Program-made: the position numbers and the translations under genes
The notes under the pieces: model-generated
What the model saw: only the letters and a program-made list of their open reading frames with translations
What the model was told of the DNA's origin: nothing
Database searches by the model: none
NCBI GenBank assembly: GCA_018394315.1
Contig: CP074575.1
Span: 1,458,615 to 1,522,614 of the forward strand
DNA: 64,000 nt
Direction of reading: 5' to 3'
Source of the DNA: Mycoplasmatota bacterium
GTDB taxonomy: Bacteria; Bacillota_I; Bacilli_A; MAG-NZ
Shown: one piece after another, positions 90-21,251 of the stretch
Layout of the letters: each line of letters begins with the position of its first letter
Numbering within the stretch: position 1 is the first letter of the stretch

Positions 90-243
90 AAAGAATTTTG
101 TCGAGTTGGTGTTATTTACAATCCTATGAGAAAGTTTAAAAAACTTAACAAGGATGATGTTGAAATAGTTACAATAAGTCCTAAAGTCCTAAAATCTATT
201 CTTTATTATTTAAGGTATGCAGAACAAACTCTTAAAGTACTAA
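90..243 (+). pseudogene. Internal fragment of a tyrosine integrase related to 20138..21085
   Basis: FCRVGVIYNPMRKFKKLNKDDVEIVTISPKVLKSILYYLRYAEQTLKVL aligns with YCEVQELINNNPLRNFTLLKKEDTETVIISPKVIKSIIKYLNTTEQTQEVL of the intact integrase; catalytic domain absent; followed by element-end hairpin and att core. Confidence 0.8.
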
Positions 244-329
244 AAAAAATAGGTAGTCGATTAAAGAGTGAATCATGGTTTTTCGCAACACATGATTTCA
301 ACTTTTATCACTTACCTATGCTATTTTAA

Positions 330-467
330 TGGCACCCCAGGAGAGATTCGAACTCTCTAAACACTAATTTAAGCTTATATATTATTAAGTTTTCAAGTAA
401 TTATATCATACGACATGGAAACTGACTTTCCACCTTAGAAAAAAAGGTGAGATTATTTCTCACTTTT
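330..467 (+). repeat. att/arm module R1 (full 26-bp tRNA 3' end, arm, palindrome, hairpin)
   Basis: TGGCACCCCAGGAGAGATTCGAACTC-TCTAAACACT...CATGGAAACTGACTTTCCACC...GTGAGA/TCTCAC. Confidence 0.95.
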
Positions 468-554
468 GACATTAACTGATTTTAGTACAAATAATACCTT
501 TTATTGGTACCCTTAAACGTTCTGAGTAGGATAAATACCGATAATACCGTCGTT

Positions 555-1730
555 TCAATCACTTATAACTATCAAATTAGGTAAATGTAAATATTCACAA
601 TGTATTATCAGTTCATTTTCGATAGCATCAGTTAGCGTTATTACCTTATCATCAACTAACAGTACATAATCAGAGAATGAACCTCCTATCATAGTGTAAT
701 TACCAAAAGTTTCTTCATAATCAAGATCATAACTATTGGAAGCATTATAATACATAGGATTTTGATACATCCCGATATATACACCATTTCCATCAAAGTA
801 ATTACTTATAATTTCTGGGACAAAGTGTTTTTCGTTCATAAACACTTTCTCTGCTGTAGTCTGACCAGGACCAGTTTCTAGGTAAATACCGAAAGTTATA
901 TTAACGAGGTTACCAACTTTAAAATCGTTTGATACCCCATCGGCATACTCAGTTTTCTCACTAATAGAAACATATGTTAATCCCGGCTGGAATAAAGATT
1001 GTACTAAAATATCGTGCTCATCAAAATCAACAATTGGTCCAATTATGTTGTTGTTTACACCAACAATTGGTGGATAATATGCTTTTACTGCGGTGGCTGT
1101 CCAAGGATAACTGGATTTATCAAGATCTTTTACTTCAAATTCTAGATGATATCTCCATTGTTCTATCTCAGGGAATTCATCAGAGGTCTCTGTGTCTTCT
1201 AATATTTCAACCCATATATGACCAAAGTTTGATAGTTTATCGGGAATAAGTAATTTATTTCCTATTTTATCTCTAGGCCACCCACCAATCATATTTGCAT
1301 CGGATAACATTTTAGCCTCTTTGGTATAATCTCTTTTTTCACACGCTCCTTTTATGGAACATAATTCCTCTATAGATATCCCTAATTCTTTAATACTCGT
1401 TCTACCATTAATCTTATAATCTGGACCAGATAACATATATGCATTACCATCTTTGAAAGCAAATACTCCTGTATAACAATTACTCCCCCCCTGTCCAGAT
1501 ATTTTCCATTCGTTATTTAATAATACAGGCCATACAATATCTTCAGTACAATTTTCAGAAGAGATAGTGTCCCTTTTCCATATTTCATAATTGTTGATTT
1601 CACCTATATAGATAAGATCTTTCATTGGTATTTTGAATCTATCACTTATGATTGATGCACTAGGATTATTATTACATGAAGAAACTAATACTATTGTTGT
1701 CAAAATAATGAATACTTTAATATACTTCAC
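555..1730 (-). CDS. Lipoprotein of unknown function (cassette A)
   Basis: GTG start after GGAGAAAGGGTG; basic N-terminus, hydrophobic stretch, LVSSC lipobox; the ORF-track extension to 1850 runs into the repeat. Confidence 0.8.
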   Translation of the reverse strand: MKYIKVFIILTTIVLVSSCNNNPSASIISDRFKIPMKDLIYIGEINNYEIWKRDTISSENCTEDIVWPVLLNNEWKISGQGGSNCYTGVFAFKDGNAYMLSGPDYKINGRTSIKELGISIEELCSIKGACEKRDYTKEAKMLSDANMIGGWPRDKIGNKLLIPDKLSNFGHIWVEILEDTETSDEFPEIEQWRYHLEFEVKDLDKSSYPWTATAVKAYYPPIVGVNNNIIGPIVDFDEHDILVQSLFQPGLTYVSISEKTEYADGVSNDFKVGNLVNITFGIYLETGPGQTTAEKVFMNEKHFVPEIISNYFDGNGVYIGMYQNPMYYNASNSYDLDYEETFGNYTMIGGSFSDYVLLVDDKVITLTDAIENELIIHCEYLHLPNLIVISD

Positions 1731-1830
1731 AAAAATCACCCTTTCTCCACACTTGTACTCTAATAATATCATATCAGGCCCAAAAAAAAGAAAAATAGGT
1801 TCGATAGAGTAATATTTTGGATTAGAGAAG

Positions 1831-1954
1831 GATTCGAACTCTCTAAACACTGATTTAAGCTTATATATTATTAAGTTTTCAAAAGCATTATAACATACGA
1901 CATGGAAACTGGCTTTCCACCTTAGAAAAAAACGAAAAATATTTTTCGTTTTTT
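1831..1954 (+). repeat. att/arm module R2
   Basis: GATTCGAACTCTCTAAACACTGATTTAAGC...TGGAAACTGGCTTTCCA...AAAACGAAAAA/TTTTTCGTTTT. Confidence 0.95.
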
Positions 1955-2119
1955 AATGTAATGATAATAGAGAAAGATTCTCTACCCTACAGATATAACC
2001 ATAAGGTTAGTGTTTTTTTGATATTAGTTGTTGTATGTACTGTAATTTGGTAGTTACAAAAGTATATGATAAAATTGAAATAAGTTAGGAAATGATTATC
2101 AAAATAAAGGGTGAATAAG

Positions 2120-3337
2120 ATGAATAAAATATTAACCATGTTTTTTCTATTAGTGTTAAGTAGTACTTTAATAGCGTGTGAGAAGGAAACAGTTCCATTG
2201 AATGAGGGTGTGAAAAACCCATTAGTAACTGAAGGGAATTCTGAGTTTGCTTTTGATATCTTCAGGGAGTTAAATAATGATGATTATAATGAGAATATTT
2301 TTATATCTCCTTTTAGTATTTCGAGTGCACTAGCAATGACTTTGAATGGGGCAGTAGGAGATACTAAAGATTCAATGCAAACTACACTGCAACTAAAAGA
2401 CATAAATATTGAGGATATGAATAATGGGTTTGCATATTTAAATCACATGTTAACAAACCTTGATGATGATGTTGAGATTAATATCGCAAATTCGCTTTGG
2501 GTGAAAGATGAATTTACAATGAACAAGCAATTTGAATTTGATATTAAAAGTAATTTTAATGCGAATGCTACTTTGCTGGATTTTGAAGATGATAAGTCGG
2601 TAGATGTAATTAATGAATGGGTAAGTGACAAGACTAATGATTTAATAGATGAAATAATTATAGGAATAGATCCATATGCTGCATTAATCTTAATAAATGC
2701 GATATATTTTAATGGTTCTTGGCAAGATGAATTTGATCCTAGCAAGACTCAATCAAGAGATTTTACTACAATAGACAAAAATGTTATACAAGTTGATATG
2801 ATGAACAGAACCGATGAAATCGGTTTTTATGAGGATAGTGAAATCACAGCTGTAAAACTACCATATGGTGATGGATCAATTAGTATGTATTGTGTTTTGC
2901 CTAATGGAAATGAAGACATAAATTCTGTGATTCGAGAGATGAACGTAGATAAGTGGAATGATTTAAGAAATGAAATGAACTACTTTTATGAAGTTACTCT
3001 TGAGTTACCAAAATTTAAAATGGAATATGGGATTAAAGAATTAAACGATGCTTTGATAAATCTAGGCATGGACGTAGCATTTGATGAAAGAGCATATTTT
3101 CCTGATTTAATAGAGGGAATGGAAGATAATCTATATATAAATGCAGTAAACCATAAAGCGGTAGTTGACGTTGGTGAAGGGGGGACTGAGGCAGCAGCAG
3201 TTACATCTGTTGTTACAGCACCGGGAGCATCACCTATTGAAATTGAGGAACGTACGTTTATAGCAAATAGACCATTTTTATTTATAATAGGTGATGAAGA
3301 AGGAAATATCTTATTCATGGGAAAAAAAGTAACATAA
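2120..3337 (+). CDS. Lipoprotein serpin (cassette B)
   Basis: LIAC lipobox; NIFISPFSI, LINAIYFNGSW, hinge EGGTEAAAVT and FIANRPFLF serpin motifs. Confidence 0.95.
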   Translation: MNKILTMFFLLVLSSTLIACEKETVPLNEGVKNPLVTEGNSEFAFDIFRELNNDDYNENIFISPFSISSALAMTLNGAVGDTKDSMQTTLQLKDINIEDMNNGFAYLNHMLTNLDDDVEINIANSLWVKDEFTMNKQFEFDIKSNFNANATLLDFEDDKSVDVINEWVSDKTNDLIDEIIIGIDPYAALILINAIYFNGSWQDEFDPSKTQSRDFTTIDKNVIQVDMMNRTDEIGFYEDSEITAVKLPYGDGSISMYCVLPNGNEDINSVIREMNVDKWNDLRNEMNYFYEVTLELPKFKMEYGIKELNDALINLGMDVAFDERAYFPDLIEGMEDNLYINAVNHKAVVDVGEGGTEAAAVTSVVTAPGASPIEIEERTFIANRPFLFIIGDEEGNILFMGKKVT

Positions 3338-3389
3338 TTAATAAAGGGTGTTATTATGATAGTAGAAGTTAAAATGGAACAGGTATTTT

Positions 3390-3513
3390 GATTCGAACTC
3401 TCTAAACACTGATTTAAGCTTATAAATTATTAATTTTTCAAAGGCATTATAACATATTACATGGAAACTGGCTTTCCACCCTAGAAAAAAAGTAGAAAAT
3501 AATTTTCTACTTT
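3390..3513 (+). repeat. att/arm module R3
   Basis: Same module; hairpin AAAGTAGAAAA/TTTTCTACTTT. Confidence 0.95.
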
Positions 3514-3546
3514 ATATTTCTTATGATCGCACGCTTATAATCTTCA

Positions 3547-4074
3547 TTATTCAGATATCATACCATCTTTGAACTCTTGATATGCACTCTCGAAATCTAA
3601 TAACATTGATTCAGGAATATACATTACAAACAGTTCGTCTAATCTGTAAGATTCATCATCGCTTTTAATCAATCCTCTTCCAGCAACGTTGCCGACACCA
3701 AAAGGTTGAGATAGATCAAGCGTACTCCCACCAGTTCCCACACTAAATGCTTTAACAGGTACTCTTATCACAATTTTATCATCGACTTTCACCAAGTCAC
3801 CTTTTAGAACATTTATTATCTTTACTTCATAAATGTGACGTGGCATTTTTTGTCCATTTTCTTTATGCTCTTCAAGGCCTAAGTATTCTTTAATCTCGAT
3901 AATTGCAAAATCTGAAATGAATCTCTCAAAATTTTCCAATGTGGGAAGAATGAGATTTTCCTCAAAGGTAATACCTGGAACTTTTTTCATATGATATTTT
4001 TCATAAATATCCTCTGTTGACAGTGTACAACCTGAAAGAACCAGAATTAAAAAAAGTATTGTAATTTTTTTCAT
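3547..4074 (-). CDS. Lipoprotein (cassette C)
   Basis: MKKITILFLILVLSGC lipoprotein signal; RBS AAGGA. Confidence 0.85.
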   Translation of the reverse strand: MKKITILFLILVLSGCTLSTEDIYEKYHMKKVPGITFEENLILPTLENFERFISDFAIIEIKEYLGLEEHKENGQKMPRHIYEVKIINVLKGDLVKVDDKIVIRVPVKAFSVGTGGSTLDLSQPFGVGNVAGRGLIKSDDESYRLDELFVMYIPESMLLDFESAYQEFKDGMISE

Positions 4075-4189
4075 ATGTTCCTTCACCTTCTCTGTATATT
4101 AGTAACCATGATGTTTCTAGTACACTCTAATAATATCAGATTTGCAAAAAAAATATGAGTAAAACGTTCGACATCAAAAACAGAGGATT

Positions 4190-4314
4190 GATTCGAACTC
4201 TCTAAACACTGATTTTAGCTTATAAATTATTAAGTTTTCAAAGGCATTATAACATATGACTTGGAAACTGGCTTTCCACCTTGGAAAAAAAGTGAGAATC
4301 TTTTTCTCACTTTT
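4190..4314 (+). repeat. att/arm module R4
   Basis: Same module; hairpin AAAAGTGAGAA/TTCTCACTTTT. Confidence 0.95.
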
Positions 4315-4342
4315 GATTATGTAAATATTTATAAATCACTCT

Positions 4343-4660
4343 TTACTGCAGAAGCCAATAATTGTTCGTGTTGTATTCATATTTTTCTAACATTGCATGA
4401 TCAATCCATTTATTAACAGCTTCTTGATGGAAATAGTATTTATTATCAATGATTAGATATGGAAACATAACACCGGTAAATATATGATATTCTTCCAACA
4501 TACTTTGCTCTATTGCAATGATTTTCATTATTTTATCATCTTCTAGTCCTAAAAAAACAGAAACTTCAGTAATATCCATCAATTCACTGTTATCATCAAC
4601 CTCATCTGTTGTGTTTGTAGACGTATAACCATGTACAACTATGCCAATAGATATGATCAA
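4343..4660 (-). CDS. Small membrane-anchored protein with possible excisionase/HTH_17-like domain (cassette D); start may lie further upstream
   Basis: Hydrophobic N-terminus, then LMDITEVSVFLGL...FPYLII..KYYF...VNKWI; strong RBS near 4705. Confidence 0.6.
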   Translation of the reverse strand: MIISIGIVVHGYTSTNTTDEVDDNSELMDITEVSVFLGLEDDKIMKIIAIEQSMLEEYHIFTGVMFPYLIIDNKYYFHQEAVNKWIDHAMLEKYEYNTNNYWLLQ

Positions 4661-4967: not shown

Positions 4968-5090
4968 GACTCGAACTCTCTAAACACTTATTTAAGCTTA
5001 TAAATTATTAAGTTTTCAAAGACATTATAACATATGACATAGAATCTGGTTTTCCACCTTACAAAAAAAGTGAAAAATAATTTTCACTTT
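4968..5090 (+). repeat. att/arm module R5
   Basis: GACTCGAACTCTCTAAACACT...; slightly diverged palindrome. Confidence 0.9.
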
Positions 5091-5195
5091 CTAAAAAATT
5101 AAATAGGAGTAATTATATAGTTGTTTCTGTAATTGAATAAGATTTCTCCTAACGGATTTTCGTCATTATCTATATCCACTATTCTGTATTATCTT

Positions 5196-6128
5196 TTAAT
5201 CTATAGGTGTTGTCTCCATCCCTTTTGAACTCCAGTCCACTATTTTAGTAATATTATCAATCGTGTCAAAATATAGTACACCATCAAAAAAATAGATTGA
5301 CCCCCCTATTGATACATTTAAAGAGAATGAGAGTCTATTTGTTCCGTCACTAATAGTAGCGACTTTCTCGTAATAAGATTCACTTACGAACACATCCCTA
5401 TTTAGGCAATTTAAGTTGTCTATCTTATCATTCTCGAACTGTGACATAATATCATCTCCGATTCTCTCTATAAATTCATCTGAGAAGTAAGGAAAGAGTG
5501 CACTCTCAAATGTAGTTCGAACCTTGTTTTCATCTAGAGGGGTATAGCTGTCACAAAGGCCTATATCTGCATAAACTAGGTTGAAATAACTCTCAAAAAA
5601 TGATTCAGTTATTTGTACTAACTCTTCCTGAGCAATTTCATTATTAGTTTCTGTGTATGGTTGTGTTTCATCTTTCCAAAAAACATCAACCCAGTCAGCA
5701 GAAATCACATCAACAATGCTAATTAGACCGAATTCAATAGCATTCATCAAGTGAACGTAAGACCCATTGTGTTCTATGAAATAGTAATGATTGGTTGGAT
5801 TTTCCCACGAATAGCCTTTGTGCATCTTGGTAATTATGACGTTTTCATCCTCCCAAATAATTTCTGTGAAATCTTCTTTCACTGAGGAATTATTCCAAAA
5901 TCCTCTTGGGTATTTGTGAGAAATCATATAAACTTGTAAATCATTAAGCTGATAACTAGTTGGAATAACCTGATATTTAACTTGTATGCTCCAGTTAGAA
6001 TAACTATCACCAGGCACTTCTATGTATATTTCTTTAATTATAGTTTCACCAGGTACTTCTACATATTTTGTACAACCTGATAAGATCATAACTCCTAATA
6101 TTGATAACAAAGGTAATAATTTTTTCAT
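5196..6128 (-). CDS. Lipoprotein (cassette E)
   Basis: MKKLLPLLSILGVMILSGC lipobox; short repeat YxEVPG. Confidence 0.85.
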   Translation of the reverse strand: MKKLLPLLSILGVMILSGCTKYVEVPGETIIKEIYIEVPGDSYSNWSIQVKYQVIPTSYQLNDLQVYMISHKYPRGFWNNSSVKEDFTEIIWEDENVIITKMHKGYSWENPTNHYYFIEHNGSYVHLMNAIEFGLISIVDVISADWVDVFWKDETQPYTETNNEIAQEELVQITESFFESYFNLVYADIGLCDSYTPLDENKVRTTFESALFPYFSDEFIERIGDDIMSQFENDKIDNLNCLNRDVFVSESYYEKVATISDGTNRLSFSLNVSIGGSIYFFDGVLYFDTIDNITKIVDWSSKGMETTPID

Positions 6129-6285: not shown

Positions 6286-6411
6286 GATTCGAACTCTCTA
6301 AACACTGATTTAAGCTTATATGATATTAAGTTTTCAAAAACATTGTAACATACGACATGGAAACTGGCTTTCCACCTTAGAAAAAAAGTGAGATTATTAC
6401 TTCTCACTTTT
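6286..6411 (+). repeat. att/arm module R6
   Basis: Same module. Confidence 0.95.
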
Positions 6412-6736: not shown

Positions 6737-7453
6737 CTATTTATAATTTATTTTCGCTTTAAATATATAAACGTAGTCATAGTTTAAAATTCTTTCTAGA
6801 GCTTTTTGATCATTATCAAAAACATCTAAATCGATACCAAGCGAAGCATCTCCACCTTCTCTTGCGATTATTGCTAATATGAGAGGTTCGTTTAATGCTA
6901 TTTTCTTATCAGATCTCAAGCCTGCCCAGGTAGTTCCAATACCAATAATATCCTCATTATTTAAGTTTACTAGTGAAGAAATGCTACCTATTGATTGAGA
7001 AGAACTATCTTTCTCCACAACAGAAATTATCCACTCATCATTATTACTATGAATTGTGTTTTTTGACAACATAATGCTTCCTGTATTTATACTTTGAAAA
7101 TGATTAAGTTCAACAACATTATCTTGAAAAATTCCATCTCTATAATATTCAACCCAGCAGTTAACTCGTATATTTTCGAGCTCGTCCATAGAGTACTCGA
7201 ATATAAAATATTGATCTGCACCTGCAGTCTTTACCAATATTTCTTGATTTTCGGTTAGTTCTAATGGTGATATTTCAATAATTCCATCCTCTTTTACCGT
7301 AGTGTCACATCCTGATAAAATCATTAGTAACACTGATAGCAAAACAAATAAATTATTATTACTTTTCAAAACAGATGAACTCTTCCGAACAAAAGAATTA
7401 TCATCCATACATAAAGATAAATTACTAGTTATATTTCCCTCTTCAATTAACAC
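6737..7453 (-). CDS. Probable lipoprotein (cassette F); start uncertain
   Basis: LLSVLLMILSGC lipobox behind an unusually long N-terminus. Confidence 0.7.
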   Translation of the reverse strand: MLIEEGNITSNLSLCMDDNSFVRKSSSVLKSNNNLFVLLSVLLMILSGCDTTVKEDGIIEISPLELTENQEILVKTAGADQYFIFEYSMDELENIRVNCWVEYYRDGIFQDNVVELNHFQSINTGSIMLSKNTIHSNNDEWIISVVEKDSSSQSIGSISSLVNLNNEDIIGIGTTWAGLRSDKKIALNEPLILAIIAREGGDASLGIDLDVFDNDQKALERILNYDYVYIFKAKINYK

Positions 7454-7712: not shown

Positions 7713-7834
7713 GGTTCGAACTCTCTAAACACTGATTTAAGCTTATATATTATTAAGTTTTCAAGCCATTATATCATACGACATGTAAACTGACTTTCCA
7801 CCTTAGAAAAAAAGTGAGATTATTTCTACTTTTT
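7713..7834 (+). repeat. att/arm module R7
   Basis: GGTTCGAACTCTCTAAACACTG... Confidence 0.95.
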
Positions 7835-7880
7835 CGTTTAAGTTTTGCTGAGTGGAGAATATCTAATTTCTTGTTTATAC

Positions 7881-8492
7881 TTATCCCCCATGAATATTAT
7901 ACATAGTATTACCCACACTATCATAAACATTCATTCCAGTGAATGCAGAAAAATCTCGATCAGTTCTATCAATCATATAATAGCCATCGCCCATTTGATG
8001 ATTTTTTTCAGCAATATTTAATATTATGGGCTCTTGGTTTCTGAATTCATAAATAACCTGTGAAACGTCGTCGTTGACTATTACTCCAAATATAACCTTG
8101 GGCACTAGATTGCTATATTGAATAACAGGAGCAGTAGTAGAACTACGTTCAGCATCATATTCATTAAGCTGATAATCCCCAGAGTTATCTTTAGTGACTT
8201 TACATAGTTTTAGAATATAAAAATCTTCAATCGAATCAATATAAGAATAAAATAGATAGATTTGGTCATCAGACTCAAATAGTTTATGCACCTGTAAAAA
8301 GTCTTGTTTGGGAGAACTCACCCGTATAAAGTTTTCTTGGTCTTCAAGATTTTTATATACTAAATCCTCGGCGACTAATAAAATAGTGCTAGCTTCTTCC
8401 TGCAGATTTATTTCTCTCTCACAACCAGAAAGAAGTTGTACTGACAATATGATAAAAAATTTCAAGGTAATATTTCCTAGATGATTTTTCAT
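7881..8492 (-). CDS. Lipoprotein (cassette G, gene 2)
   Basis: LLSGC lipobox; AGGAGG RBS. Confidence 0.85.
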   Translation of the reverse strand: MKNHLGNITLKFFIILSVQLLSGCEREINLQEEASTILLVAEDLVYKNLEDQENFIRVSSPKQDFLQVHKLFESDDQIYLFYSYIDSIEDFYILKLCKVTKDNSGDYQLNEYDAERSSTTAPVIQYSNLVPKVIFGVIVNDDVSQVIYEFRNQEPIILNIAEKNHQMGDGYYMIDRTDRDFSAFTGMNVYDSVGNTMYNIHGG

Positions 8493-8513
8493 GATTCCTC
8501 CTAAGTTAATATA

Positions 8514-9014
8514 CTAACTGTTATAAAAAAATGATACATCGCCCAACACCATGTCTTTTTTGTCAGTAATTATTACCCTGTAGTTTATCCCACTCGCTAA
8601 TTTTTTATCAAGAATGCAAATGACCTCTTCAATTGATTTGTTGTAAAAATAATGCGCTCCACTTGTAATTAATTTACCCAAAAAATTATCATTCTCATCT
8701 AGCACCTTTATATTATATTTGAACATGTCAGTCTCTACATTTGAAATAAATCCAAATGAAATTTGAGAGAAATAATCATAATATAATATATCTGTAATTT
8801 CAATATCATTATCTTGGTAATCACTTTTTTCTAGCTCTAGAATTATATAATCATCATTGAGATCCTCTGTGTATCGATCGTAATCTTCGAGGTTAATGTA
8901 ATAAGAACCGATGTATTCATAATGGTCTCGATAATAATTAAATTTGAGTATAGGTATTAACAGCCAAATAATAATTCCCGTTATTAAAATAATGATAAAT
9001 ATCTTTATTTTCAC
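8514..9014 (-). CDS. Membrane-anchored exported protein (cassette G, gene 1)
   Basis: N-terminal TM helix; GGGAGTGG RBS. Confidence 0.75.
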   Translation of the reverse strand: MKIKIFIIILITGIIIWLLIPILKFNYYRDHYEYIGSYYINLEDYDRYTEDLNDDYIILELEKSDYQDNDIEITDILYYDYFSQISFGFISNVETDMFKYNIKVLDENDNFLGKLITSGAHYFYNKSIEEVICILDKKLASGINYRVIITDKKDMVLGDVSFFYNS

Positions 9015-9116: not shown

Positions 9117-9241
9117 GATTCGAACTCTCTAAACACCGTTTTAAGCTTATATATTATTAAGATTTCAAGCCATTATAACATGTCACATGGAAACTGGCTT
9201 TCCACCCTAGAAAAAAAGTGAAAATATTTTTCACTTTTTTT
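9117..9241 (+). repeat. att/arm module R8
   Basis: Same module. Confidence 0.95.
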
Positions 9242-9311: not shown

Positions 9312-9587
9312 TTATCTATTTGTCATAACAGCAGTCCCACAGACAATTAAATTTCCCGAGTAGGTTGGGTCTTCGCTAATTCTGACCGAATAAACACTGT
9401 CTGCGCCTTTTTCCTTAGCTTGTTTTAGCAGTTCTTTGAGAGCATCATAGATTCCCTCTTGAGTTAAATAACTTCCACTTTTGTCAGCATTAGTGTTTAT
9501 TTTAAAAGCAACTGTTCCCAGTGGTTTAGTATAACTAAAGGGTTCACATGTATATACATTATCTACCACTTTTGTCCTCCCTCCCAT
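9312..9587 (-). CDS. YbjQ-like (putative heavy-metal-binding domain) protein (cassette H)
   Basis: ALKELLKQAKEKGADSV...GTAV pattern, like 62812..63129. Confidence 0.65.
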   Translation of the reverse strand: MGGRTKVVDNVYTCEPFSYTKPLGTVAFKINTNADKSGSYLTQEGIYDALKELLKQAKEKGADSVYSVRISEDPTYSGNLIVCGTAVMTNR

Positions 9588-9647
9588 AGAAGTATAGATT
9601 TTTCAATCCTACATATATCTAATAATTCTTAAATAATTTGCTTACTT

Positions 9648-9989
9648 TCACTTATTAACGTATTTACCAACTAAAATAGCTCTTATTATTACGATAATAA
9701 AGAATAAAACAAAACTCACTTTTATTATTACGCCATATAAAGTATTTTCCTCATATATCATTTTGCCTACTAATGGCAGAACTACTCCAATAAACATGAA
9801 TACACTTGTAAATATCATGGAGTTCCCTGCATATTTACCCATTCTCTCCTTATCATGTTTTTTTGGATCGTAGCCTGAGACAATATAAACCATCTTACCT
9901 TTTCTAAGTTGTCTTCCCAGTAAAAATATTACAAGATTAATAATACTGAAGAGTATTATTACAAATAAATACACATATTTACTTTCCAT
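9648..9989 (-). CDS. Small 3-TM membrane protein, DUF3784-like (cassette H)
   Basis: TM, then IVSGYD, then two TM segments. Confidence 0.65.
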   Translation of the reverse strand: MESKYVYLFVIILFSIINLVIFLLGRQLRKGKMVYIVSGYDPKKHDKERMGKYAGNSMIFTSVFMFIGVVLPLVGKMIYEENTLYGVIIKVSFVLFFIIVIIRAILVGKYVNK

Positions 9990-10108: not shown

Positions 10109-10175
10109 GATTCGAACTCTCTAAACACTGATTTAAGCATATATATTATTCAGTATTCATAACATTATTTCATGC
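10109..10175 (+). repeat. Truncated att/arm module R9 (no palindrome or hairpin)
   Basis: GATTCGAACTCTCTAAACACTGATTTAAGC, then decays. Confidence 0.85.
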
Positions 10176-10228
10176 AAAATTAGATATGCTATAATTAGAG
10201 TGAAATTATGATAAATGGGGAGAATAGT

Positions 10229-11356: not shown

Positions 11357-11751
11357 AAAAAGAAGAACTACACGATTTAAAAATTTTGGAACTAAACGAA
11401 CTAGATTATCTAATTGTATACAAAACACGATTTAATTATTTTCTACAAGGTATTGAAAATAGAAAACGTTTTAAAAAAAATCTTTGAAAAAAATCAATAT
11501 TAATCTTCTCTTATTTGTTATTATGATTATTATCGTTTTACGTGTAAGCTAATCATGGTTATAATACAAGTATAAAAACAACACAGACATATTTACATTT
11601 GACTTCAAAAAAAATACAAAGCAAACATAAACAATATTCACCAATAAATAAGTTTGCTTATACAAAAAAAGTAAGCGATGTCCCCATACCTAAAATATAG
11701 AATGTTCCCACACCTAGAATGGACTCTTTTCGCTTACCTATGATTTTTTTA

Positions 11752-11883
11752 TGGCACCCCAGGAGAGATTAGAACTCTCTAAACACTGATTTAAGCTTAT
11801 AAATTATTAAGATTTCAAGCCATTATATCATACGACATGGAAGCTGGCTTTTCACCCTAAAAAAAAATGAAAAAATATTTTTT
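11752..11883 (+). repeat. att/arm module R10 (full tRNA 3' end, one mismatch), preceded by element-end hairpin
   Basis: CGCTTACCTATG...TGGCACCCCAGGAGAGATTAGAACTC. Confidence 0.95.
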
Positions 11884-12038
11884 GCTTTGAATATTGTGAC
11901 TCAATAGATTAATAATAGACAATAACGAATAACAGAATAAGACTTTTAACTAACAAAATCCAATTGTATCAGAGTTTAGTATAGATAGAAATATGATATA
12001 ATTTGATAAGTAGAACACGTTTACGAAGAGGGGATAAG

Positions 12039-13181
12039 ATGAAAGAAAAAAACAGTTTCCTTATAACTAAATATATTCATCCATTAGAGAGAAAAATTGT
12101 GCTTGATGAAGATAGAAATATAATTTTTGATAATCCTAAAACAATTGAGGAGATAACCTTTATAGAAAATATCATAAAAAAAACATATTTTGCCTATAAA
12201 CTTGACGACTTTGGAAAAAAATTCGCTAAGGCTGCAAACTCGAATGAGAGTATGATCGATAAATTTGACGAGAACGATGAATTACTTACTCTCAAGCTAT
12301 ATTATTTTTCATACATGAGAGATGTTGGAAAACATGATAGTTTTATAAAGGAATTTAAAGAATCAAATTTGGAATCTTCTAAATCTAACATATTTAACCT
12401 GATATCAAGAATGAGTATTATTATTAGATACGAGGAAGAAGAAAAACAGAATATTAGTGGAAAAGAGATATGCACAATGTACTCAAATCTACTGTACTTA
12501 GTATGCAATAATGATTTTGGAGGAAAATTGGAGCATTTGTCAATTCATGTTAATAATGATGACTCAAATTTTATAAATAAAGATTATGCAAGTCTATTTG
12601 AAAACCTAGCAAACACATATTTTTATTCTTATACAAACACTCCTGAAAATTCATTTCACTATACAATTAATGAGTACATAAAATGGAGTAAGCTTATTAA
12701 TGAATTTACAACTAAAGATAAAATAGATAAGTTAATCTATTTATCAAATATTTTGGAACTTATAAACAACAGCAAAAAAAATTACAATTATAAGGTTCTA
12801 AGTTTAGTTAGTATACTTGAACTATTTTTAACTCACAACCCAAATTATATGAGATACAATATCGAAGACTCTATCAGCAAACAGTTTACACTTAAGGTAG
12901 CTATAGTTATGCATTACGACAATCCTAAAATAGACTTGATTAAGTTAGACGAGAAATTGAAATTCATTTATAATATACGATCTAACATAGCACATGGAAA
13001 TTTTGCAAAGAATAATAAACTGATGAACAAGTTTTATGATTATTACGAGTGCGATAAGAGTAATAGTGATCTCGAAGAAAAATTTAAGATAATTTCTGAT
13101 GATCTATACTCGATAGTCTCGATATTATTAAAAAGATATTTTACTAATTCGCAATTTATTGATTTTTTGAAAGAAAAATAA
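12039..13181 (+). CDS. HEPN-domain protein, ApeA-like, putative defence RNase (cassette J)
   Basis: LVSILELFL helix plus YNIRSNIAHG (RxxxxH) motif. Confidence 0.75.
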   Translation: MKEKNSFLITKYIHPLERKIVLDEDRNIIFDNPKTIEEITFIENIIKKTYFAYKLDDFGKKFAKAANSNESMIDKFDENDELLTLKLYYFSYMRDVGKHDSFIKEFKESNLESSKSNIFNLISRMSIIIRYEEEEKQNISGKEICTMYSNLLYLVCNNDFGGKLEHLSIHVNNDDSNFINKDYASLFENLANTYFYSYTNTPENSFHYTINEYIKWSKLINEFTTKDKIDKLIYLSNILELINNSKKNYNYKVLSLVSILELFLTHNPNYMRYNIEDSISKQFTLKVAIVMHYDNPKIDLIKLDEKLKFIYNIRSNIAHGNFAKNNKLMNKFYDYYECDKSNSDLEEKFKIISDDLYSIVSILLKRYFTNSQFIDFLKEK

Positions 13182-13196: not shown

Positions 13197-13312
13197 ATTC
13201 GAACTCTCTAAACACTGATTTAAACTTATATGTTATTAAGATTTCAAGACATTATGCCATGCAACATGAATACTGGATTTCTACCCTTTAATAAACAGAA
13301 TTTAATTCTGTT
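13197..13312 (+). repeat. att/arm module R11 (diverged)
   Basis: ATTCGAACTCTCTAAACACTG...; hairpin AACAGAAT/ATTCTGTT. Confidence 0.9.
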
Positions 13313-13313
13313 C

Positions 13314-13412
13314 TTAAATTTCCTTGTCTAAGATTCTGACAGTATACTTTTTCTTAGTGTAATCGTACTCTATTGATAAGTAGATAACCTATCAGTAAAA
13401 ACCGCATTTATT
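13314..13412 (-). pseudogene. 3' remnant of a paralogue of the HTH gene 15026..15259
   Basis: Encodes INAV...YLSIEYDYTKKKYTV with a frameshift; TTAGTGTAATCGTACTCTATTGATAAGTAGATAA is identical to the ~15066-15099 segment. Confidence 0.85.
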
Positions 13413-14925: not shown

Positions 14926-15026
14926 ACTGAAACTAAGGTTAATCTTATTAAAATTTAAGACGTAATCTCATTCAGCATGTAAACTGGCTTTCCAACCTAG
15001 AAAAAAACAGAAGTAAATTCTGTTTT
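14926..15026 (+). repeat. Degenerate arm module R12 lacking the att core
   Basis: CATGTAAACTGGCTTTCCAACCTAGAAAAAAACAGAA...TTCTGTTTTT. Confidence 0.75.
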
Positions 15027-15259
15027 TAATTATCTCCCTCTAAGTCATTGACAGTATACATCTTTTTAGTGTAATCGTACTCTATTGATAAGTAGATAAA
15101 TCTATTGGCAAGAACAGCGTTGATTCTTTGAAAATGATTTCTAATTGTTTTTTCAGAAACTCCGTAGTGTTCTGCCAGGTCTGATTTCTTTAACTCTTTC
15201 TTCTCAATTACGAACATTATAAGTAATTCTAATGCTGTCTCAATGATCCTGCTTTCCAT
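15026..15259 (-). CDS. Small HTH DNA-binding protein
   Basis: KSDLAEHYGVSEKTIRNHFQRI HTH. Confidence 0.8.
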   Translation of the reverse strand: MESRIIETALELLIMFVIEKKELKKSDLAEHYGVSEKTIRNHFQRINAVLANRFIYLSIEYDYTKKMYTVNDLEGDN

Positions 15260-15455
15260 TTTTTCACCCAGTAAAAATAATAACAATAATGAACTCCATA
15301 AATATTATTTACTCGCTCTCAAATTCAGTAAAAGAAGAAAAATATATTAAACAAAGAGGGACGTCTATCCCTTATACTTATATGAAGTATTTTATATCTG
15401 CTACAAAAAAAGAAGATATCGAATTCAATACCAGGTCAAAACAATAATCAAAGAT

Positions 15456-16229: not shown

Positions 16230-16588
16230 ATAACCCTCCTGAAAAATCTAATCTAAACCTTTAATATATTTTATTTTACCATATATGTACATTTTCCCTA
16301 TTGTAGTAAACTAACAAAGAGCTGTAATTATTACACAAAAAATATAATATAAAGTCAAATTAGTTTATTTGCTTAATATATAATTCTTCTAATTATCTTA
16401 TTAATACTTATACTGACATACCCTCCTTATACACATATACCAGGTACCATATACTCACTTTGCAAGTTCCATAAACCCATCTTATAAAACCATCTACCCA
16501 CCTTATAGATTTTTCATAAAAAAAATAATCAAGAAATTCTTGATTGTTTATATGACAATTTAAAGTTAGATTCATGAGAATCCTTTCT

Positions 16589-17437
16589 TTAAAATTGAGT
16601 CGCAAATCGGTCAAATTGCTCTGGATTTTTAGTTATTACTTGATGTCTACTTTCTAAGATTTTGTTCATGTACTCTACTCTACATTTCTTAAGCTGCAGA
16701 GTTTTGAGTAGAGCACTCTTAATATCCTCATAATCATATCTCCACCTCGATATGATAAATCTTTCTTTGGATGATAATTTACGCTTATACTCAATTTCTA
16801 CAAGCTTAATTACATCTTGGTTATTTTCTATGACCGATACTAAATCTCTAGTTTTCTTCGCTCTTCGTTGAGCGTTAATATATTTACTCCATTTATCTTT
16901 ATACTTCTTAATTGCTGATTCTAACGTTACGATTCTATATCTAATAAACTTACGAATTACTATAAGAAGTCCTCTATGCTTCTTAATGTTATATAACTTA
17001 CCCTCAATCTCATATTCTCTTACATCACGATTCATTGTAGATACTAGTCTATTTACTTCAGATTCATTTAGTGATATAAATCGTTTGGACCCATTAAAGT
17101 CTTTCATATGAACTTGTCTAGTATTAATAAGTCTTAGTTTGTTTTTAAGAATACCTAAAGCTTTATTAACTCTTGAGTCTAATCTATGTTTCTTTAACTT
17201 CATTTCTTCAGTTAGAGTTCCTAGCCTTCTAGCCTGGTTAAATTCATCCTGGAACTCTTTAGTAGTGAAATGACATCTTACTGCTAGTGAGAGAGAAGTA
17301 ATCTGAATCTCTTCTAACTCTTTATCCAACATCCAGGGTACTATAGTTTGAAACAATTTTAATGAATCTGTAAATGCATGATCCATGTACTGTCCGTTTG
17401 GATCTGTTCCAAAGAAATGAAATCTAGTTTTCTTCAT
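16589..17437 (-). CDS. Putative replication initiator with C-terminal DnaD/DnaB_2-like domain
   Basis: C-terminal EYKRKLSSKE...W...IKSAL...YMNKIL pattern; phage-like operon context. Confidence 0.6.
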   Translation of the reverse strand: MKKTRFHFFGTDPNGQYMDHAFTDSLKLFQTIVPWMLDKELEEIQITSLSLAVRCHFTTKEFQDEFNQARRLGTLTEEMKLKKHRLDSRVNKALGILKNKLRLINTRQVHMKDFNGSKRFISLNESEVNRLVSTMNRDVREYEIEGKLYNIKKHRGLLIVIRKFIRYRIVTLESAIKKYKDKWSKYINAQRRAKKTRDLVSVIENNQDVIKLVEIEYKRKLSSKERFIISRWRYDYEDIKSALLKTLQLKKCRVEYMNKILESRHQVITKNPEQFDRFATQF

Positions 17438-17455
17438 TATAGTACCCCCTTTCCT

Positions 17456-17812
17456 CTAAGCTACTGCTTTAGTAGCTCTTTTAAACTCAGTACAAATTCT
17501 TTGTATATGTCTAACACTATAATCAACTTCACTTGCTATCTGATAGTAACTTTTCTTCTTGATGATTTTAAGAAATAATACTTGGTATTGCTTATCGTTT
17601 TCTTTACTAAACTCTTCAATCTTACTTTCTATGGTTACTAGTACTTTTCTTAGTTCTGGAAGTCTTTCATGTATAGACTGTAACTCCTCTTCAGTATTAC
17701 CTCTTGTATTAAGATTCTTTAACACATACTCTCTTAACTCTAAGTAACTAATCTCATCTTTAATCTCGCTATAAGATTGAAATGTCTTATATGTAAACTT
17801 TGAAACGGACAT
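17456..17812 (-). CDS. Phage-type regulator (RinA/ArpU/DUF1492-like, sigma region-4 HTH)
   Basis: KSYYQIASEVDYSVRHIQRI. Confidence 0.65.
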   Translation of the reverse strand: MSVSKFTYKTFQSYSEIKDEISYLELREYVLKNLNTRGNTEEELQSIHERLPELRKVLVTIESKIEEFSKENDKQYQVLFLKIIKKKSYYQIASEVDYSVRHIQRICTEFKRATKAVA

Positions 17813-17825
17813 TTAGTCACCTCAT

Positions 17826-18113
17826 TTATAATCGAGTTATATCTCGTTTTTGTCTTTCAATACTTCTATGATATTCAATAGCTCTTTTAATCTCTTCAAC
17901 ATCAATACATACTAGTGGTTTATCAGATACTTCATGTACAGCACTACACATTAACGTGGCCACATACGTCCAACCATCTATTGTTGTTAGTACCTGGACA
18001 CTAACTTTATTTAAGTTTACTTTCTTAATGATTCCACTAAGTTTGGTTTTAGAGAAGAAACCATTATAAACACCTTTAAAATACTTTCCATTATCGCTAG
18101 TACTTAGTACCAT
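17826..18113 (-). CDS. Hypothetical protein
   Basis: GAGGTG RBS; within the leftward operon. Confidence 0.7.
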   Translation of the reverse strand: MVLSTSDNGKYFKGVYNGFFSKTKLSGIIKKVNLNKVSVQVLTTIDGWTYVATLMCSAVHEVSDKPLVCIDVEEIKRAIEYHRSIERQKRDITRL

Positions 18114-18125
18114 AAAATCACCTCT

Positions 18126-18422
18126 TTACTTCAAATAAAATATTTCTTTATCATCAATAAATGCTTCAGTAATTTCACTTCGAGCTTTAACTGCTAGTTC
18201 ATGTGTATCATACACACCTAATAGAAAGACATGATGACCACTCACTGCCTCTACTGTATAGTCTCTTGTGTTATGTCCTCTTATCTTATAAAGAAGTTGT
18301 TTAAATATCTTCACATAACCAAAATCATCTCTTAACTCATCTTTAATCAAACCTTCATCAACAACGATACTTACATCCTCGTAATTAACATCAACCTCCA
18401 AGTCCTTACTAATTACTCTCAT
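18126..18422 (-). CDS. Hypothetical phage-type protein
   Basis: ATG after GGAGGA, overlapping the MTase end. Confidence 0.65.
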   Translation of the reverse strand: MRVISKDLEVDVNYEDVSIVVDEGLIKDELRDDFGYVKIFKQLLYKIRGHNTRDYTVEAVSGHHVFLLGVYDTHELAVKARSEITEAFIDDKEIFYLK

Positions 18423-19188
18423 TAACTTCCTCCATCTTTTCAAAATCTGTAAATATACTTGTTTGTCCACTCGCAGTAATTCCATTAATTCTATCTAACG
18501 CTATCTTGTAATATTGTGGATCAATTTCAAAACCTATGTAATTACGTTTTAACTCTTTAGCTGCTACTGCAGTTGTACCTGAACCTATAAAGAAGTCAGC
18601 TACTATATCTCCTTCATCACTAGAATTGATAATGAAGTTCTTTATAAACTTTAGAGGTTTTATAGTCGGATGTAGAAATAAATCCTTTTCTTCCTGATTA
18701 GTTTTACGAATATAGAACTTATGCTTTGTGTGATAGTTTCCTTTGAGTCTAACGCCTCGTTCTCTAAAATAGAAGCAATACTCTATATCAGGTAAGAATG
18801 TATTGTTAACGGCTGGTGTTGGATTAGTTTTACACCAGACTAATAACTCAAAGTTACACTCATACTTATCAAAGAAATCAAAGTACTGTTTTAGTTGTCT
18901 CTTATTACACCAGATGTATATGTTTATCTTTTTCATCACTCTAACCATCTCTAGTAATAGTTCGTTATCGATTCCTATATGTAAGTTTTTATTCTTTAAC
19001 TCGTGTTGTACTTTACTCATACCTCTAGTAACGGCACAAGAACTATTTAATCCATTCTCACAAGTACTCATCTGTAATTTATAGGGTGGGTCAATAACAA
19101 TTAAGTCGATACTGTTATCCGGTATCTCTTTAATAGCCTTATAACTATCAACATTGTAAATATTGTTCAGATTATATTTTCCTAGCAT
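18409..19188 (-). CDS. Orphan N6A/N4C DNA methyltransferase (beta class)
   Basis: DPPY precedes HPTIKP and DFFIGSGTT motifs. Confidence 0.92.
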   Translation of the reverse strand: MLGKYNLNNIYNVDSYKAIKEIPDNSIDLIVIDPPYKLQMSTCENGLNSSCAVTRGMSKVQHELKNKNLHIGIDNELLLEMVRVMKKINIYIWCNKRQLKQYFDFFDKYECNFELLVWCKTNPTPAVNNTFLPDIEYCFYFRERGVRLKGNYHTKHKFYIRKTNQEEKDLFLHPTIKPLKFIKNFIINSSDEGDIVADFFIGSGTTAVAAKELKRNYIGFEIDPQYYKIALDRINGITASGQTSIFTDFEKMEEVNESN

Positions 19189-19760
19189 TTAAACATCCTT
19201 TCATATATAGATATTTAAAAACTAGATCATCGGTAGAATATCAATGAATAAAACTTCCTGGTATAGTTGAATCTAACCAACACCACTCTAGAGCGCATGC
19301 ACTTGTCTAACACTCACATAAGTAGAGTGGCGCGAACCTATACGAAAACGTATAAACCAAAAAACCTAAACAATAATAAAATAAATATAATGACAGCTTG
19401 CTGTTCATTTATTTGTTTTAAGCGTAGGTAACAAAAAGAAACACAACAGGCGACGTAGTCGCCACGCGCCACATATGGCGAGTAAATAGAATATTGGCTT
19501 TGAAGAACCCACTCCAAGACCGCCACGCTAGAGTCAGGTTCATCAAAGCCAACATAATAATGGCGGTCTAATATAAAGGGGAGAAATATGAAAAGTTCTC
19601 AAGATTAGTTTAATAACTTTCACCTAGTAGCAAATTATGTCGCACGCTACTAGGTTTAAATTAATTTTGAAATATGCTATAATCAAAGTTGTCTAGAAAT
19701 GAGAATAGCATTACGTAAACAAGGAGTCCTTTTGACTTCTAGTTTTTGCACTTTACAATG

Positions 19761-19812
19761 GATACGATAGTATCCACAACATTATTATATAGATACTATC
19801 GTATCTTGTCAA
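19761..19812 (-). promoter_or_regulatory. Consensus leftward sigmaA promoter with two GATAC-N4-GTATC operators
   Basis: TTGACA (19812-19807), 17 bp, TATAAT (19789-19784); GATACGATAGTATC at 19761 and its exact inverse at 19792. Confidence 0.85.
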
Positions 19813-19832
19813 GAAGTTGAGAGGAGCAAATT

Positions 19833-20045
19833 ATGAAACTGCACTATGCAAACAACATCAAGTGGCTTAGAATGAAACTCTACAGCAGTAGGGATGAGTT
19901 TTCACATGCGATAGAAATGAGTGAAAACACAATTAAAGCTTATGAGAATGGGTATAGGACTCCAGTGATTGATAAACTGGTAATCATTGCATTACATTTC
20001 GGCGTATCTTTAGATGATCTGGTTTTCAAAGATCTTACAAAGTAA
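19833..20045 (+). CDS. XRE-family HTH repressor
   Basis: IKWLR...EFS...SENTIKAYENGYRTP...IALHFGVSLDDL. Confidence 0.9.
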   Translation: MKLHYANNIKWLRMKLYSSRDEFSHAIEMSENTIKAYENGYRTPVIDKLVIIALHFGVSLDDLVFKDLTK

Positions 20046-20068
20046 CAAATAATTTCATTTTTAGACAC

Positions 20069-20106
20069 AAGGTGGAAACTGGGCTTCCATGTCAATTTGT
20101 ATAATG
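20069..20106 (+). promoter_or_regulatory. Integrase promoter/operator; inverted copy of the palindrome plus -10 found in the array modules
   Basis: AAGGTGGAAACTGGGCTTCCATGTC-N6-TATAATG. Confidence 0.7.
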
Positions 20107-20137
20107 ACTAATACAGAATTGAAAGGAAGTGTTTTAT

Positions 20138-21085
20138 ATGGATGATATTAAATATTTAATATCGCAATTTGTTAAATTAAATAACAATGACATAGGACTA
20201 GAAGAGGTCAAAGAAATATATCTGAACAGATGTAGAATTGAAGTGAGAGAAGATACTTACAAATACTACAGACGATTTTTAACATCAATAATTGATTATC
20301 TTATCGGTATTGGTGTTAGGTCAACAAAGGAAATAACAAGTAAGGCTTTATATGAATTTATCAATGAACATCGTAAACTTGGACACAAGAACAATTACAT
20401 AAATAAGTTTATTGGCGCACTTAAGCAGGCTCTAACATACTGTGAAGTCCAGGAGCTCATAAATAATAACCCTCTAAGAAACTTCACGTTACTTAAGAAA
20501 GAAGATACAGAGACTGTTATTATTAGTCCGAAAGTTATTAAAAGCATAATCAAGTATCTAAATACAACTGAACAAACACAAGAAGTACTCAGAGCTAAAG
20601 CAATGATCTATATCTTACTGGATACAGGAATTAGAAAGAATGAGCTCAGAAACGTTAAGTTAGAAAACTTAGATTTAGAAAACGATTCTATTCATTTAAC
20701 TTATACTAAAACCAGGAAGCACCGAACAGTATTTATAACTTCAAGCACTAATCTAGCAATAGTTGAATACTTGAACTCAGTTTCTCCAGATAATTACTTG
20801 TTAGTGAGTTTACATACTGGAATGCAGCTCTCTGCTAAAGCTATGGAAGATGTAATCATAAAAATAAAAAGAAAGCTCAACATACCTAAAGAGGTTAGTA
20901 TAAGCTTTCATAAGTTTAGACATACGTTCGCTACTATGTTCCTGGAACAAAACAAGAACATAGAAACAGTCCGTAAGATATTAGGGCACACTAGTATTAA
21001 GACAACACAGATATATTTGCATTTATCTAATTCTAAAGTACAAAACGAACATCGAGAATTCTCACCGATTAATCGTTTTGTGTAA
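20138..21085 (+). CDS. Tyrosine recombinase/integrase (Xer-sized)
   Basis: TGIRKNEL, TKT, HKFRH, LGH, TQIY catalytic residues; abuts the tRNA. Confidence 0.95.
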   Translation: MDDIKYLISQFVKLNNNDIGLEEVKEIYLNRCRIEVREDTYKYYRRFLTSIIDYLIGIGVRSTKEITSKALYEFINEHRKLGHKNNYINKFIGALKQALTYCEVQELINNNPLRNFTLLKKEDTETVIISPKVIKSIIKYLNTTEQTQEVLRAKAMIYILLDTGIRKNELRNVKLENLDLENDSIHLTYTKTRKHRTVFITSSTNLAIVEYLNSVSPDNYLLVSLHTGMQLSAKAMEDVIIKIKRKLNIPKEVSISFHKFRHTFATMFLEQNKNIETVRKILGHTSIKTTQIYLHLSNSKVQNEHREFSPINRFV

Positions 21086-21174
21086 AAATAAAAGTAAGCT
21101 GAGTCTCAACACATGAATACCTCAATGTCCCAACACATGAGGAAGTGTTTTTTCGCTTACTTGTGCTATTTTAA

Positions 21175-21251
21175 TGGCACCCCAGGAGAGATTCGAACTC
21201 CCGACACTCGCCTTAGAAGGGCGATGCTCTATCCAGCTGAGCTACTGAGGC
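21175..21251 (-). tRNA. tRNA-Arg(TCT)
   Basis: 77-nt cloverleaf GCCTCAG...TCGCC-CT-TCT-AA-GGCGA...TTCGAAT...CCA; TTTACA-17-TAAAAT promoter upstream. Confidence 0.97.

Follow-up and report, generated by a model that had tools for sequence, protein, structure and literature searches.

The 64,000-nt stretch analysed here (the window, to which plain positions refer) corresponds to genome positions 1458615-1522614 of contig CP074575.1 (G000:C1) in a 2.17-Mb genome whose assembly is 93.6% complete. On its minus strand, at 21175..21251, it carries a tRNA-Arg(TCT) gene, the sole copy found in an assembly whose only detected Arg tRNAs are TCT and ACG. This gene is the target of a tyrosine integrase element, and behind it lies a stack of about 26 short gene units extending over ~60 kb. 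The window opens inside this repeat array, which continues 38 kb further left, up to genome 1420404. When eroded and foreign-arm sites are counted in, the array contains 27 junctions with a median spacing of 1488 bp. The source genome (G000) was compared with relatives, among them G001, G002, G004 and G005. In G002, 39 bp separate the tRNA-Arg gene from a response-regulator-like gene. The equivalent of the latter in the source genome, matched by eye, ends at 1412564; the whole island would therefore measure ~67 kb. The tRNA is present without the element in G002, G004 and G005. The syntenic place in G001 (G001:C152:3344-3538) holds a tRNA-Arg(TCT) whose 3′ end is not the same and behind which comes a tRNA-Leu, in what may be a misjoined contig.

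The array contains one intact integrase gene (20129..21085, plus strand), which adjoins the regenerated tRNA by way of the P′ (integrase-side) arm of the resident element (21086..21174, minus strand). The 318-aa product matches PF00589 with an E-value of 8e-32 and has its catalytic motifs intact, GIRK, HKFRH, ILGH and QIYL being present. It is Xer-like in size, and its best model matches are XerA/XerC/XerD-like, all below cut-off. Given the length of the protein and a SAM-like domain that starts at residue 24-39, there would be no room for an arm-binding domain of the lambda type. The remainder of the element comprises a backbone (16375..19755, minus strand) encoding an N6/N4 methylase, small open reading frames (ORFs) and a 282-aa ORF without assigned family, and an HTH_11 regulator gene (15026..15286, minus strand).

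Successive units are joined by a repeat composed of a core and, on its right, an arm of about 120 bp. The arm accompanies all 11 cored copies in the window, and its mean column identity is 83% (12 copies). With two or fewer mismatches allowed, the 16-nt core occurs 23 times in the genome and 22 of these occurrences are in the array, against 1 for the reversed control; the cores are clustered there beyond chance. An exact 21-mer scan of metagenome contigs gave 0 matches, and counts for the core pattern in G002-G005 were no better than control. A search for the arm in 60 other genomes of the class yielded a real match in G001 only, five more being weak matches to the A/T-rich hairpin end.

Two of the 11 cored repeats carry the full tRNA-Arg tail and nine are cut at the T-loop. 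The sequence TGGCACCCCAGGAGA, the reverse complement of the tRNA-Arg 3′ end, occurs at 330, at 11752 and, in the tRNA itself, at 21175. An earlier reading of the DNA (the original prediction) had held that only these three places have the full tail and that the nine other copies match from the T-loop core onward. The second statement was confirmed, the TTCGAA starts of the short sites lying at 1833, 3392, 4192, 4970, 6288, 7715, 9119, 10111 and 13198. The first is correct within the window, but the core at 11752 is mutated and a further near-full site, with a 1-nt deletion, lies left of the window at genome 1443610, as do two eroded full sites (genome 1442133 and 1435345). Among the 27 junctions, the tRNA-3′-end attachment (att) sites around units number three full or near-full and two eroded, all others consisting of the T-loop only.

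The distribution of matches around the core delimits the point of strand exchange, which had been predicted to fall in the TTCGAA T-loop. Identity between the arm and the tRNA sets in no more than 3 nt ahead of TTCGAAT. In 15 short flanks (two duplicated families collapsed and the three full sites set aside), the next base, C, is kept in 13, and position 2 departs from the tRNA (T in 1/15). The crossover can therefore be placed in the 11-bp interval GAG-TTCGAAT-C, an identity block around the 7-nt T-loop, and these sequence comparisons support a crossover within the T-loop itself. TTCGAAT is intact in 21 of the 24 cores examined, the exceptions being 11752 (TTAGAA; overlap TTCTAAT), 4970 (CTCGAA on the plus strand; overlap TTCGAGT) and 7715 (last overlap base mutated; overlap TTCGAAC). 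Such a proportion is expected if recombining partners need an identical 7-bp overlap, as does the integrase of phage mv4, for which the accessible part of the report describes an overlap of this length that must be identical between partners and flanking half-sites that are tolerant (10.1101/2023.11.06.565760). Sites in the T-loop and at the T/acceptor junction are usually hard to tell apart, according to the portion of the Islander study available (PMC4383910); in the Arg array, natural half-site variants pin the crossover to the T-loop, as single islands rarely allow.

Analysis of the full sites showed that the original prediction was right in expecting an integrase-side end before them. The array contains three integrase-gene relics, detected by tblastn, and each lies to the left of a full or near-full site. 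The first, at 96..245 (plus strand, E 9e-8), matches aa 104-155 of the resident integrase with 50% identity and is followed by a P′ relic (246..329, minus strand) that has CAACACATGA and CTTAC.T.TG in common with 21086-21174. Next comes the full site at 330..352 (minus strand), in which the TTCGAAT T-loop is joined to an intact 16-nt tRNA-Arg 3′ tail, and the first copy of core and arm (346..470, minus strand). The second relic, at 11566-11658 (E 2e-7), is C-terminal (aa 288-318, 61%) and forms with its P′ arm the feature 11566..11751 (plus strand), to the right of which the full tail, the mutated overlap and the arm occupy 11752..11890 (minus strand). The third is at genome 1443339-1443428 (E 3e-4). 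These findings support the view that the unit to the left of each full site is a decayed integrase-bearing element, to all appearances a cis-mobilizable element (CIME) in everything but proven origin. It had been proposed that the full sites mark tandem integrations of whole elements. The relics uphold this for the unit on the left of each site, but not for 330-11777 and 11752-21200 as blocks bordered by them: the former is made up of nine separate units and has no intact integrase or backbone. Moreover, the arm and gene that come after the full site at 330 (positions 345-1932) match, with 95.7% identity across 1591 bp, a unit that follows a serpin short site elsewhere, so that the DNA right of 330 is a separate unit. 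The block 330-11777 could leave without harm to the tRNA. The class of a junction is set by the unit on its left on the plus strand, with decayed elements, recognizable by their integrase relics, giving a full tail and cassettes a short one.

Read in the direction of the tRNA, the arm consists of a hairpin with a T-run, the inverted repeat TGGAAA-N5-TTTCCA and an extended −10 box, after which comes the core. In copy 1, the terminator-like hairpin lies at ~447-463, the operator-like repeat at 416-432 and the extended −10 box TGATATAAT, facing the core, at 400-408. The order of a whole unit in the same direction is core, tail or head, gene or genes, terminator, operator, extended −10 and next core. 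The hairpin is significant at p<=0.05 in 14/20 arms. A perfect TGnTATAAT is found 47-48 nt before the T-loop in 16/20 arms (genome background, 0.11 per kb), and the same box lies 47-59 nt before the T-loop in seven of the eight arms of other families that were checked. A sigma-70 scan was rejected as an arm marker since it did not single out the arms (98 sites vs 86 expected). Genes read away from the arm promoter in 7/10 units between 346 and 13198. Both the inverted repeat and the −10 box recur, in inverted orientation, in the promoter of the resident integrase (20050..20109, plus strand). The Arg arm operator matches its own integrase promoter (0/500 shuffles), and the element at tRNA-Ser does likewise with a different repeat (0/500), the Arg x Ser cross pairs giving no match. 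The arm promoter would drive the next unit and, through the shared operator, would be controlled together with the integrase; an HTH_3 (Cro/CI-type) regulator gene adjacent to the integrase promoter (19833..20045, plus strand) might encode the operator-binding protein.

Two gene families occur repeatedly in the array. Serpin units (three; in the window, the gene at 2111..3337, plus strand, PF00079, E 6e-107) are 91-94% identical in DNA, and lipoprotein-like units (four paralogues, a label given by eye; in the window, 555..1850, minus strand, no Pfam or NCBIfam match) 79-96%. Pairs of such units align core to core in 9/9 cases, their neighbours differing, and their order changes: the serpin unit precedes the lipoprotein-like one at genome 1443610 and comes after it at window 346. 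Serpin arms (in the window, with the short site at 1832..1955, minus strand) differ from one another at 0-1 of 93 columns, against a mean of 12.5 over arms, and the variant ACTAA beside the core is shared by the two closest lipoprotein units alone (2/20). Each duplicated family keeps its own tail, so that for seven duplicated units the short tail is seen to travel with its cassette. By this comparative evidence, all from one genome, the array is one of one- or two-gene cassettes in direct orientation that are reordered as units.

Parts of units have been exchanged as well. At genome 1455095 the arm that meets a serpin tail at the core belongs to a different family, which recurs in G004 before a tRNA-Ser(GCT)-like tail (by eye), and at genome 1455703 a foreign arm is 75-81% like the tmRNA-array arm of G004. 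A 360-aa gene has replaced a serpin, of which 86 bp of the end and the tail remain; this unit is a cassette made by a body swap between head and arm. Two cases of gene replacement between an existing head and arm were found, and new cassettes seem to be made partly in this manner. The 360-aa permease-like gene (genome 1453699-1454781), presumably spore-germination-like, has four paralogues elsewhere.

The left flanks of the short sites, described in the original prediction as unrelated, proved not to be so in every case. The heads at 1833, 4192 and 9119 are homologous over ~80-100 bp (z 7.8-11.6 vs shuffles) while their genes are unrelated, and identical flanks recur with duplicated genes; the flanks at 4970 and 6288 give z 4.5. 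The head at 1833 (1740..1831, minus strand) comprises a short tail, a TCGAA motif and TG-n-TATTAT. As an array marker, the head pattern TGTCGAA..TGnTAnnAT was discarded, since only 6 of its 21 genome matches are in the array. Over their first ten bases the short tails are C-rich and G-poor (60 C vs 22 expected), the C-richness ending at about position 10 and giving way to background; intact tRNA ends differ. Many of the tails are C/T-rich, and in part they resemble tRNA tails that have eroded. Gapped tests did not identify the short tails as a class with eroded tRNA-Arg tails (p 0.13 and p 0.30), nor did a comparison at fixed positions with either the inverted arm half-site or the part of the Arg tail after its first base give a significant match. 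The best reference was the Ser-type tail on a G001 arm (p<0.0005 when base 1 is fixed; z 2.9 and p 0.003 when bases 1-2 are; p 0.012 for a set of 12 flanks). Inspection by eye of the six G001 sites with the same arm showed four eroded Arg-like tails, one Ser-like and one short, and to the left of the window the source genome contains three Arg tails that are damaged. The tails form a spectrum rather than two classes.

We consider it probable, from the organization of the junctions, that the tyrosine integrase inserts, excises and reorders the ~26 units by crossing over within the T-loop of their junctions. The enzyme would recombine any two arm-core sites. A short-tailed circle integrating into the tRNA would destroy the acceptor stem of the only tRNA-Arg(UCU) found; entry would therefore take place at internal junctions or behind a full-tailed carrier. 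Freed from the task of restoring the tRNA, tails might erode or be swapped for those of other targets such as tRNA-Ser, as their resemblances suggest. The integrase element itself is likely nearly grounded. Its proximal short site (13197..13387, minus strand) is joined to a relic of the HTH_11 gene end and has the second most divergent arm; because this site, at 13198, is tail-less and the overlap of the next full site, 11769, contains a mismatch, the element would be hard to excise.

A number of observations weigh against integrase-mediated reordering or its corollaries. The core-to-core alignment of paralogues is partly forced, arm and core being common to every junction. By their arms, which differ in the middle, the two closest lipoprotein units are not each other's nearest neighbours, and the homology between two copies (92%) of a 238-aa gene in separate units does not reach the cores; ordinary homologous recombination or conversion therefore also acts. 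The C-richness to position 10 would also suit a secondary site at which the integrase used a degenerate half-site. The Ser-type reference was picked after looking, from 27 tried, and the likeness is modest; in the stricter test with bases 1-2 fixed, the result for tRNA-Ser itself is p 0.11, and the Arg 12-mer reaches z 2.4. With an assembly that is 93.6% complete, a second tRNA for AGR codons may exist. In the transfer-messenger RNA (tmRNA) array of G004, 9/11 arm matches have intact or near-intact tails, and short tails are therefore not general, being a feature of the Arg array and G001 among the arrays examined. Finally, the arm and integrase-promoter operators of the tmRNA element do not match (one of three elements).

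Rather unlikely, in our estimate, is a history in which whole elements accumulated in tandem at the tRNA and each lost its core through a crossover between the upstream T-loop and a cryptic TTCGAAT-like site preceding the cargo, so that cargo and arm are static remains. Such a history agrees with the position of the cargo in the Ser and tmRNA relatives of the element, where it adjoins the arm, with the 288 occurrences of TTCGAAT in the genome, and with the 10-nt extent of the C-rich, G-poor stretch, which is the length of a half-site. Moreover, sites 13198, 10111 and 3392 resemble no tRNA tail, and for this minority of short sites a secondary-site origin is possible. However, the recurring units form diverged families that keep their tail while neighbours and order change, unrelated genes share heads, and the relatives searched yielded no intact element with such cargo behind a cryptic core. 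Breakpoints were also compared with putative donors in five cases (two G001 units and their source counterparts, the 360-aa gene and G004, the serpins at 200 kb and 264 kb, and a 116-aa unit and G004), at identities of 70-92% and with the direction of transfer not known, which makes the comparisons weak. None of the five shows a clear core at the breakpoint, the comparison of the 116-aa unit being ambiguous; nor do these comparisons support the earlier proposal that short sites are one-off secondary-site events capturing donor DNA. The 92% G004 copy of the 360-aa gene lies in another T-loop-bounded array. The cargo of the 116-aa unit (genome 1439445-1439795) is a Gly-Tyr repeat protein, present in G001 and G004 too.

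Improbable as well is a scheme in which the junctions are fossils of accretion, host homologous recombination between the 120-bp arms moves the units now and the integrase serves its own element only. The arms are 85-99% alike and in direct orientation, their relationships are patchy and genes have been swapped inside units without cores, all of which such a scheme would accommodate. Recombination through the arms, however, does not need the T-loop, yet overlaps have stayed intact in most cores while arms differ at 12.5/93 columns on average; and the serpin tail at genome 1455095 meets a wholly different arm exactly at the core, an arrangement impossible via arm homology. Direct integrase capture of chromosomal donor DNA at secondary sites appears highly improbable: ordinary chromosomal genes do enter units (a two-gene block that is chromosomal at 44596-46585 sits between two cores in G001:C227, 76% identical) and one donor comparison has TTACGAA near the aligned breakpoint, but a single crossover explains one unit end only, the other end meeting the arm at the terminator where there is no core, and homology to donors runs as far as a gene end or a terminator, leaving a gap of ~20-30 bp to the core.

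The other cassettes of the window have diverse contents; their junctions, like the genes unless noted, are on the minus strand. The short site and arm at 3391..3512 precede a gene for a 179-aa protein (3547..4086, no family above cut-off), and those at 4191..4311 a 105-aa gene (4343..4660, no Pfam match); unit 4192-4970 has a long non-coding head (4739-4870). The short site with overlap TTCGAGT (4969..5091) is followed by a 310-aa gene (5196..6128, no family), and that at 6287..6409 by the 238-aa gene (6737..7453), whose 92% copy is in a different unit left of the window; three 16-bp tandem repeats lie in the cassette tail at 6608-6675. Two-gene cassettes follow the site with overlap TTCGAAC (7714..7835; 203 aa and 166 aa at 7881..9014, no Pfam matches) and the site at 9118..9238 (YbjQ-like, 91 aa, and DUF3784, 113 aa, at 9312..9989). 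Next to a short site with truncated arm (10110..10180) is a GIY-YIG domain gene (10208..11356, plus strand), cargo of the decayed element, and beyond the full site at 11752 a 392-aa gene (12003..13181, plus strand, no family). Between the last cored site and an arm copy without core (14934..15030), positions 13727-14738 hold a DUF3800 gene followed by three 139-142-bp repeats; the locus matches the Rfam family DUF3800-I weakly, at 28.6 bits against a cut-off of 44.2, and we take it to resemble a type III toxin-antitoxin module. Left of the window, an insertion sequence (genome 1423475-1424895) with three 99% copies elsewhere lies 20 bp from a core.

Tandem copies of tRNA ends also occur in the source genome at His, Trp, both Ser, Gln, Glu, Pro and tmRNA. 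The tRNA-Ser(TGA) array (genome 657728-685500) contains an integrase element with an Arg-type backbone, four full sites, one site whose tail ends after 11 nt, and two tRNA-Phe-like fragments (667306 and 668473). A tRNA-Trp 3′ fragment within the Arg array (genome 1433363-1433427), 88% like the Trp array sites, would indicate traffic between arrays. The repeat GGATTTTCAATCC, whose sequence is that of the tRNA-Phe anticodon arm in reverse complement, defines a second family; it is present in 13 copies ~0.2-1.2 kb apart at genome 576077-583871, has 38 matches in G004:C1:1480001-1600000 and one copy at window 9285, inside unit 9119-10111; these repeats look like another cassette system.

The resident element and the one at tRNA-Ser(TGA) have backbones that are 91% identical and integrases that are only 55% identical, and a third related element sits at tmRNA. 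Related integrases (42-54%) are found in G004 and G005, four of the six matches lying beside a tRNA or tmRNA end, and the source label of one homologue reads Mycoplasmatota. Pfam, PHROGs and NCBIfam scans of the backbone detected no relaxase, coupling-protein, T4SS or other conjugation families. PHROGs matches were limited to the integrase, regulators and methylase, plus a terminase-small-subunit match of E 0.01 on a helix-turn-helix protein. No close phage relative was found (best integrase match 30%, 282-aa ORF without match, Atlas matches inconsistent), and an integrase pattern scan of genome contigs gave 114 pattern matches, 0 of them confirmed. The elements at tmRNA (G000:C1:1043126-1058712) and tRNA-Leu (G005:C4:90943-110249) carry a module of ~7 partly hydrophobic genes (367, 103, 898, 372, 90 and 700 aa) with no informative PHROGs match. 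They possibly represent a temperate virus that is as yet unclassified; the Arg and Ser elements would then be its reduced forms.

Hallmarks of integrons are the integrase IntI, the sites attI and attC and the promoter Pc. Like an integron, the Arg array combines a single tyrosine recombinase, which is sedentary, with a long row of units of one or two genes each, separated by repeated sites; there is reordering, and a promoter reads across the site. Unlike one, it lacks the IntI signature (the integron-integrase model TIGR02249 gives 62 bits against a cut-off of 265, over residues 235-304 only) and the attC hairpin: 0/15 junctions fold better than shuffles in an attC-like manner at p<=0.05, the covariation term of the arm consensus is +0.17 kcal/mol, and there is no Rfam attC match at E<=1. 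Its sites are T-loop cores with an arm of the double-stranded type; every junction has its own promoter-like box, and no attI or Pc lies by the integrase 5′ end, the first junction being 6.9 kb from the integrase start. By its sequence features, the Arg array works like an integron but fails two defining tests, IntI and attC.

The closest known parallel is the tandem accretion of CIMEs. For the ICESt1/ICESt3 family and IME_Sag2603_tRNAlys, the accessible sections report 33 pairs and four triples in 75 genomes (PMC5704250, PMC7563491). There too, integrase-less att-bounded units lie at the target's 3′ end with chimeric internal att sites and integrase relics, and the intact element is nearest to the target gene. 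However, those stacks are of two or three as opposed to about 26 units, most Arg-array junctions cannot restore the target, the units recur in new order, and the Arg-element backbone has no detected relaxase or conjugation gene. The 3919 islands of Islander include four tandems with at least three members, every member having an integrase of its own (PMC4383910). Islander tRNA islands (subsites A, T and J) are alike in having a tyrosine integrase beside a regenerated tRNA, a displaced 3′ fragment and a T-arm site; in the Arg array the short sites fix the T-loop, and the array fragments are too short for an Islander search. Tycheposons are characterized by genes for replication and for interference with packaging. 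In the available text on Prochlorococcus, these small tRNA-targeting elements push older ones into the island (bioRxiv 10.1101/2020.12.28.424599). Partial tRNAs and broken integrases are left behind as in the Arg array, but that text describes no conserved promoter arm or reshuffled single-gene units, and host group and backbone are different. The mv4 integrase, acting at tRNA-Ser, has an identical 7-bp overlap and tolerant half-sites, which fits intact overlaps and variable tails; unlike the Arg enzyme, it is, in the portion consulted, a 369-aa heterobivalent phage protein with one attP/attB pair and no array (10.1101/2023.11.06.565760). A search of open papers found no description of a long T-loop-only cassette array.

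Thus, stacking at tRNA islands is known as two or three decaying elements, and the Arg stack, with the scale and unit size of a chromosomal integron, adds signs of reordering, a conserved promoter at each junction and a regulatory link to the integrase. It also makes intermediates of cassette creation visible, in the gene replaced inside a serpin unit and the heads reused by unrelated genes; to our knowledge, the origin of cassettes is still open for integrons. A tolerant recombinase with a 7-bp overlap and many natural sites could easily be tried in a laboratory host. We tentatively suggest that the array might be an independently evolved analogue of an integron, in which a grounded, virus-derived integrase of Xer size serves a library of 26 units through T-loop cores, the promoter at each junction being under the integrase operator so that shuffling and expression are switched together, with gene swaps between heads and arms and traffic between the tRNA arrays of the lineage. 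If the integrase recombines the internal short-tailed sites, the array would represent a second route to an integron-like system, by way of ordinary double-strand att sites.

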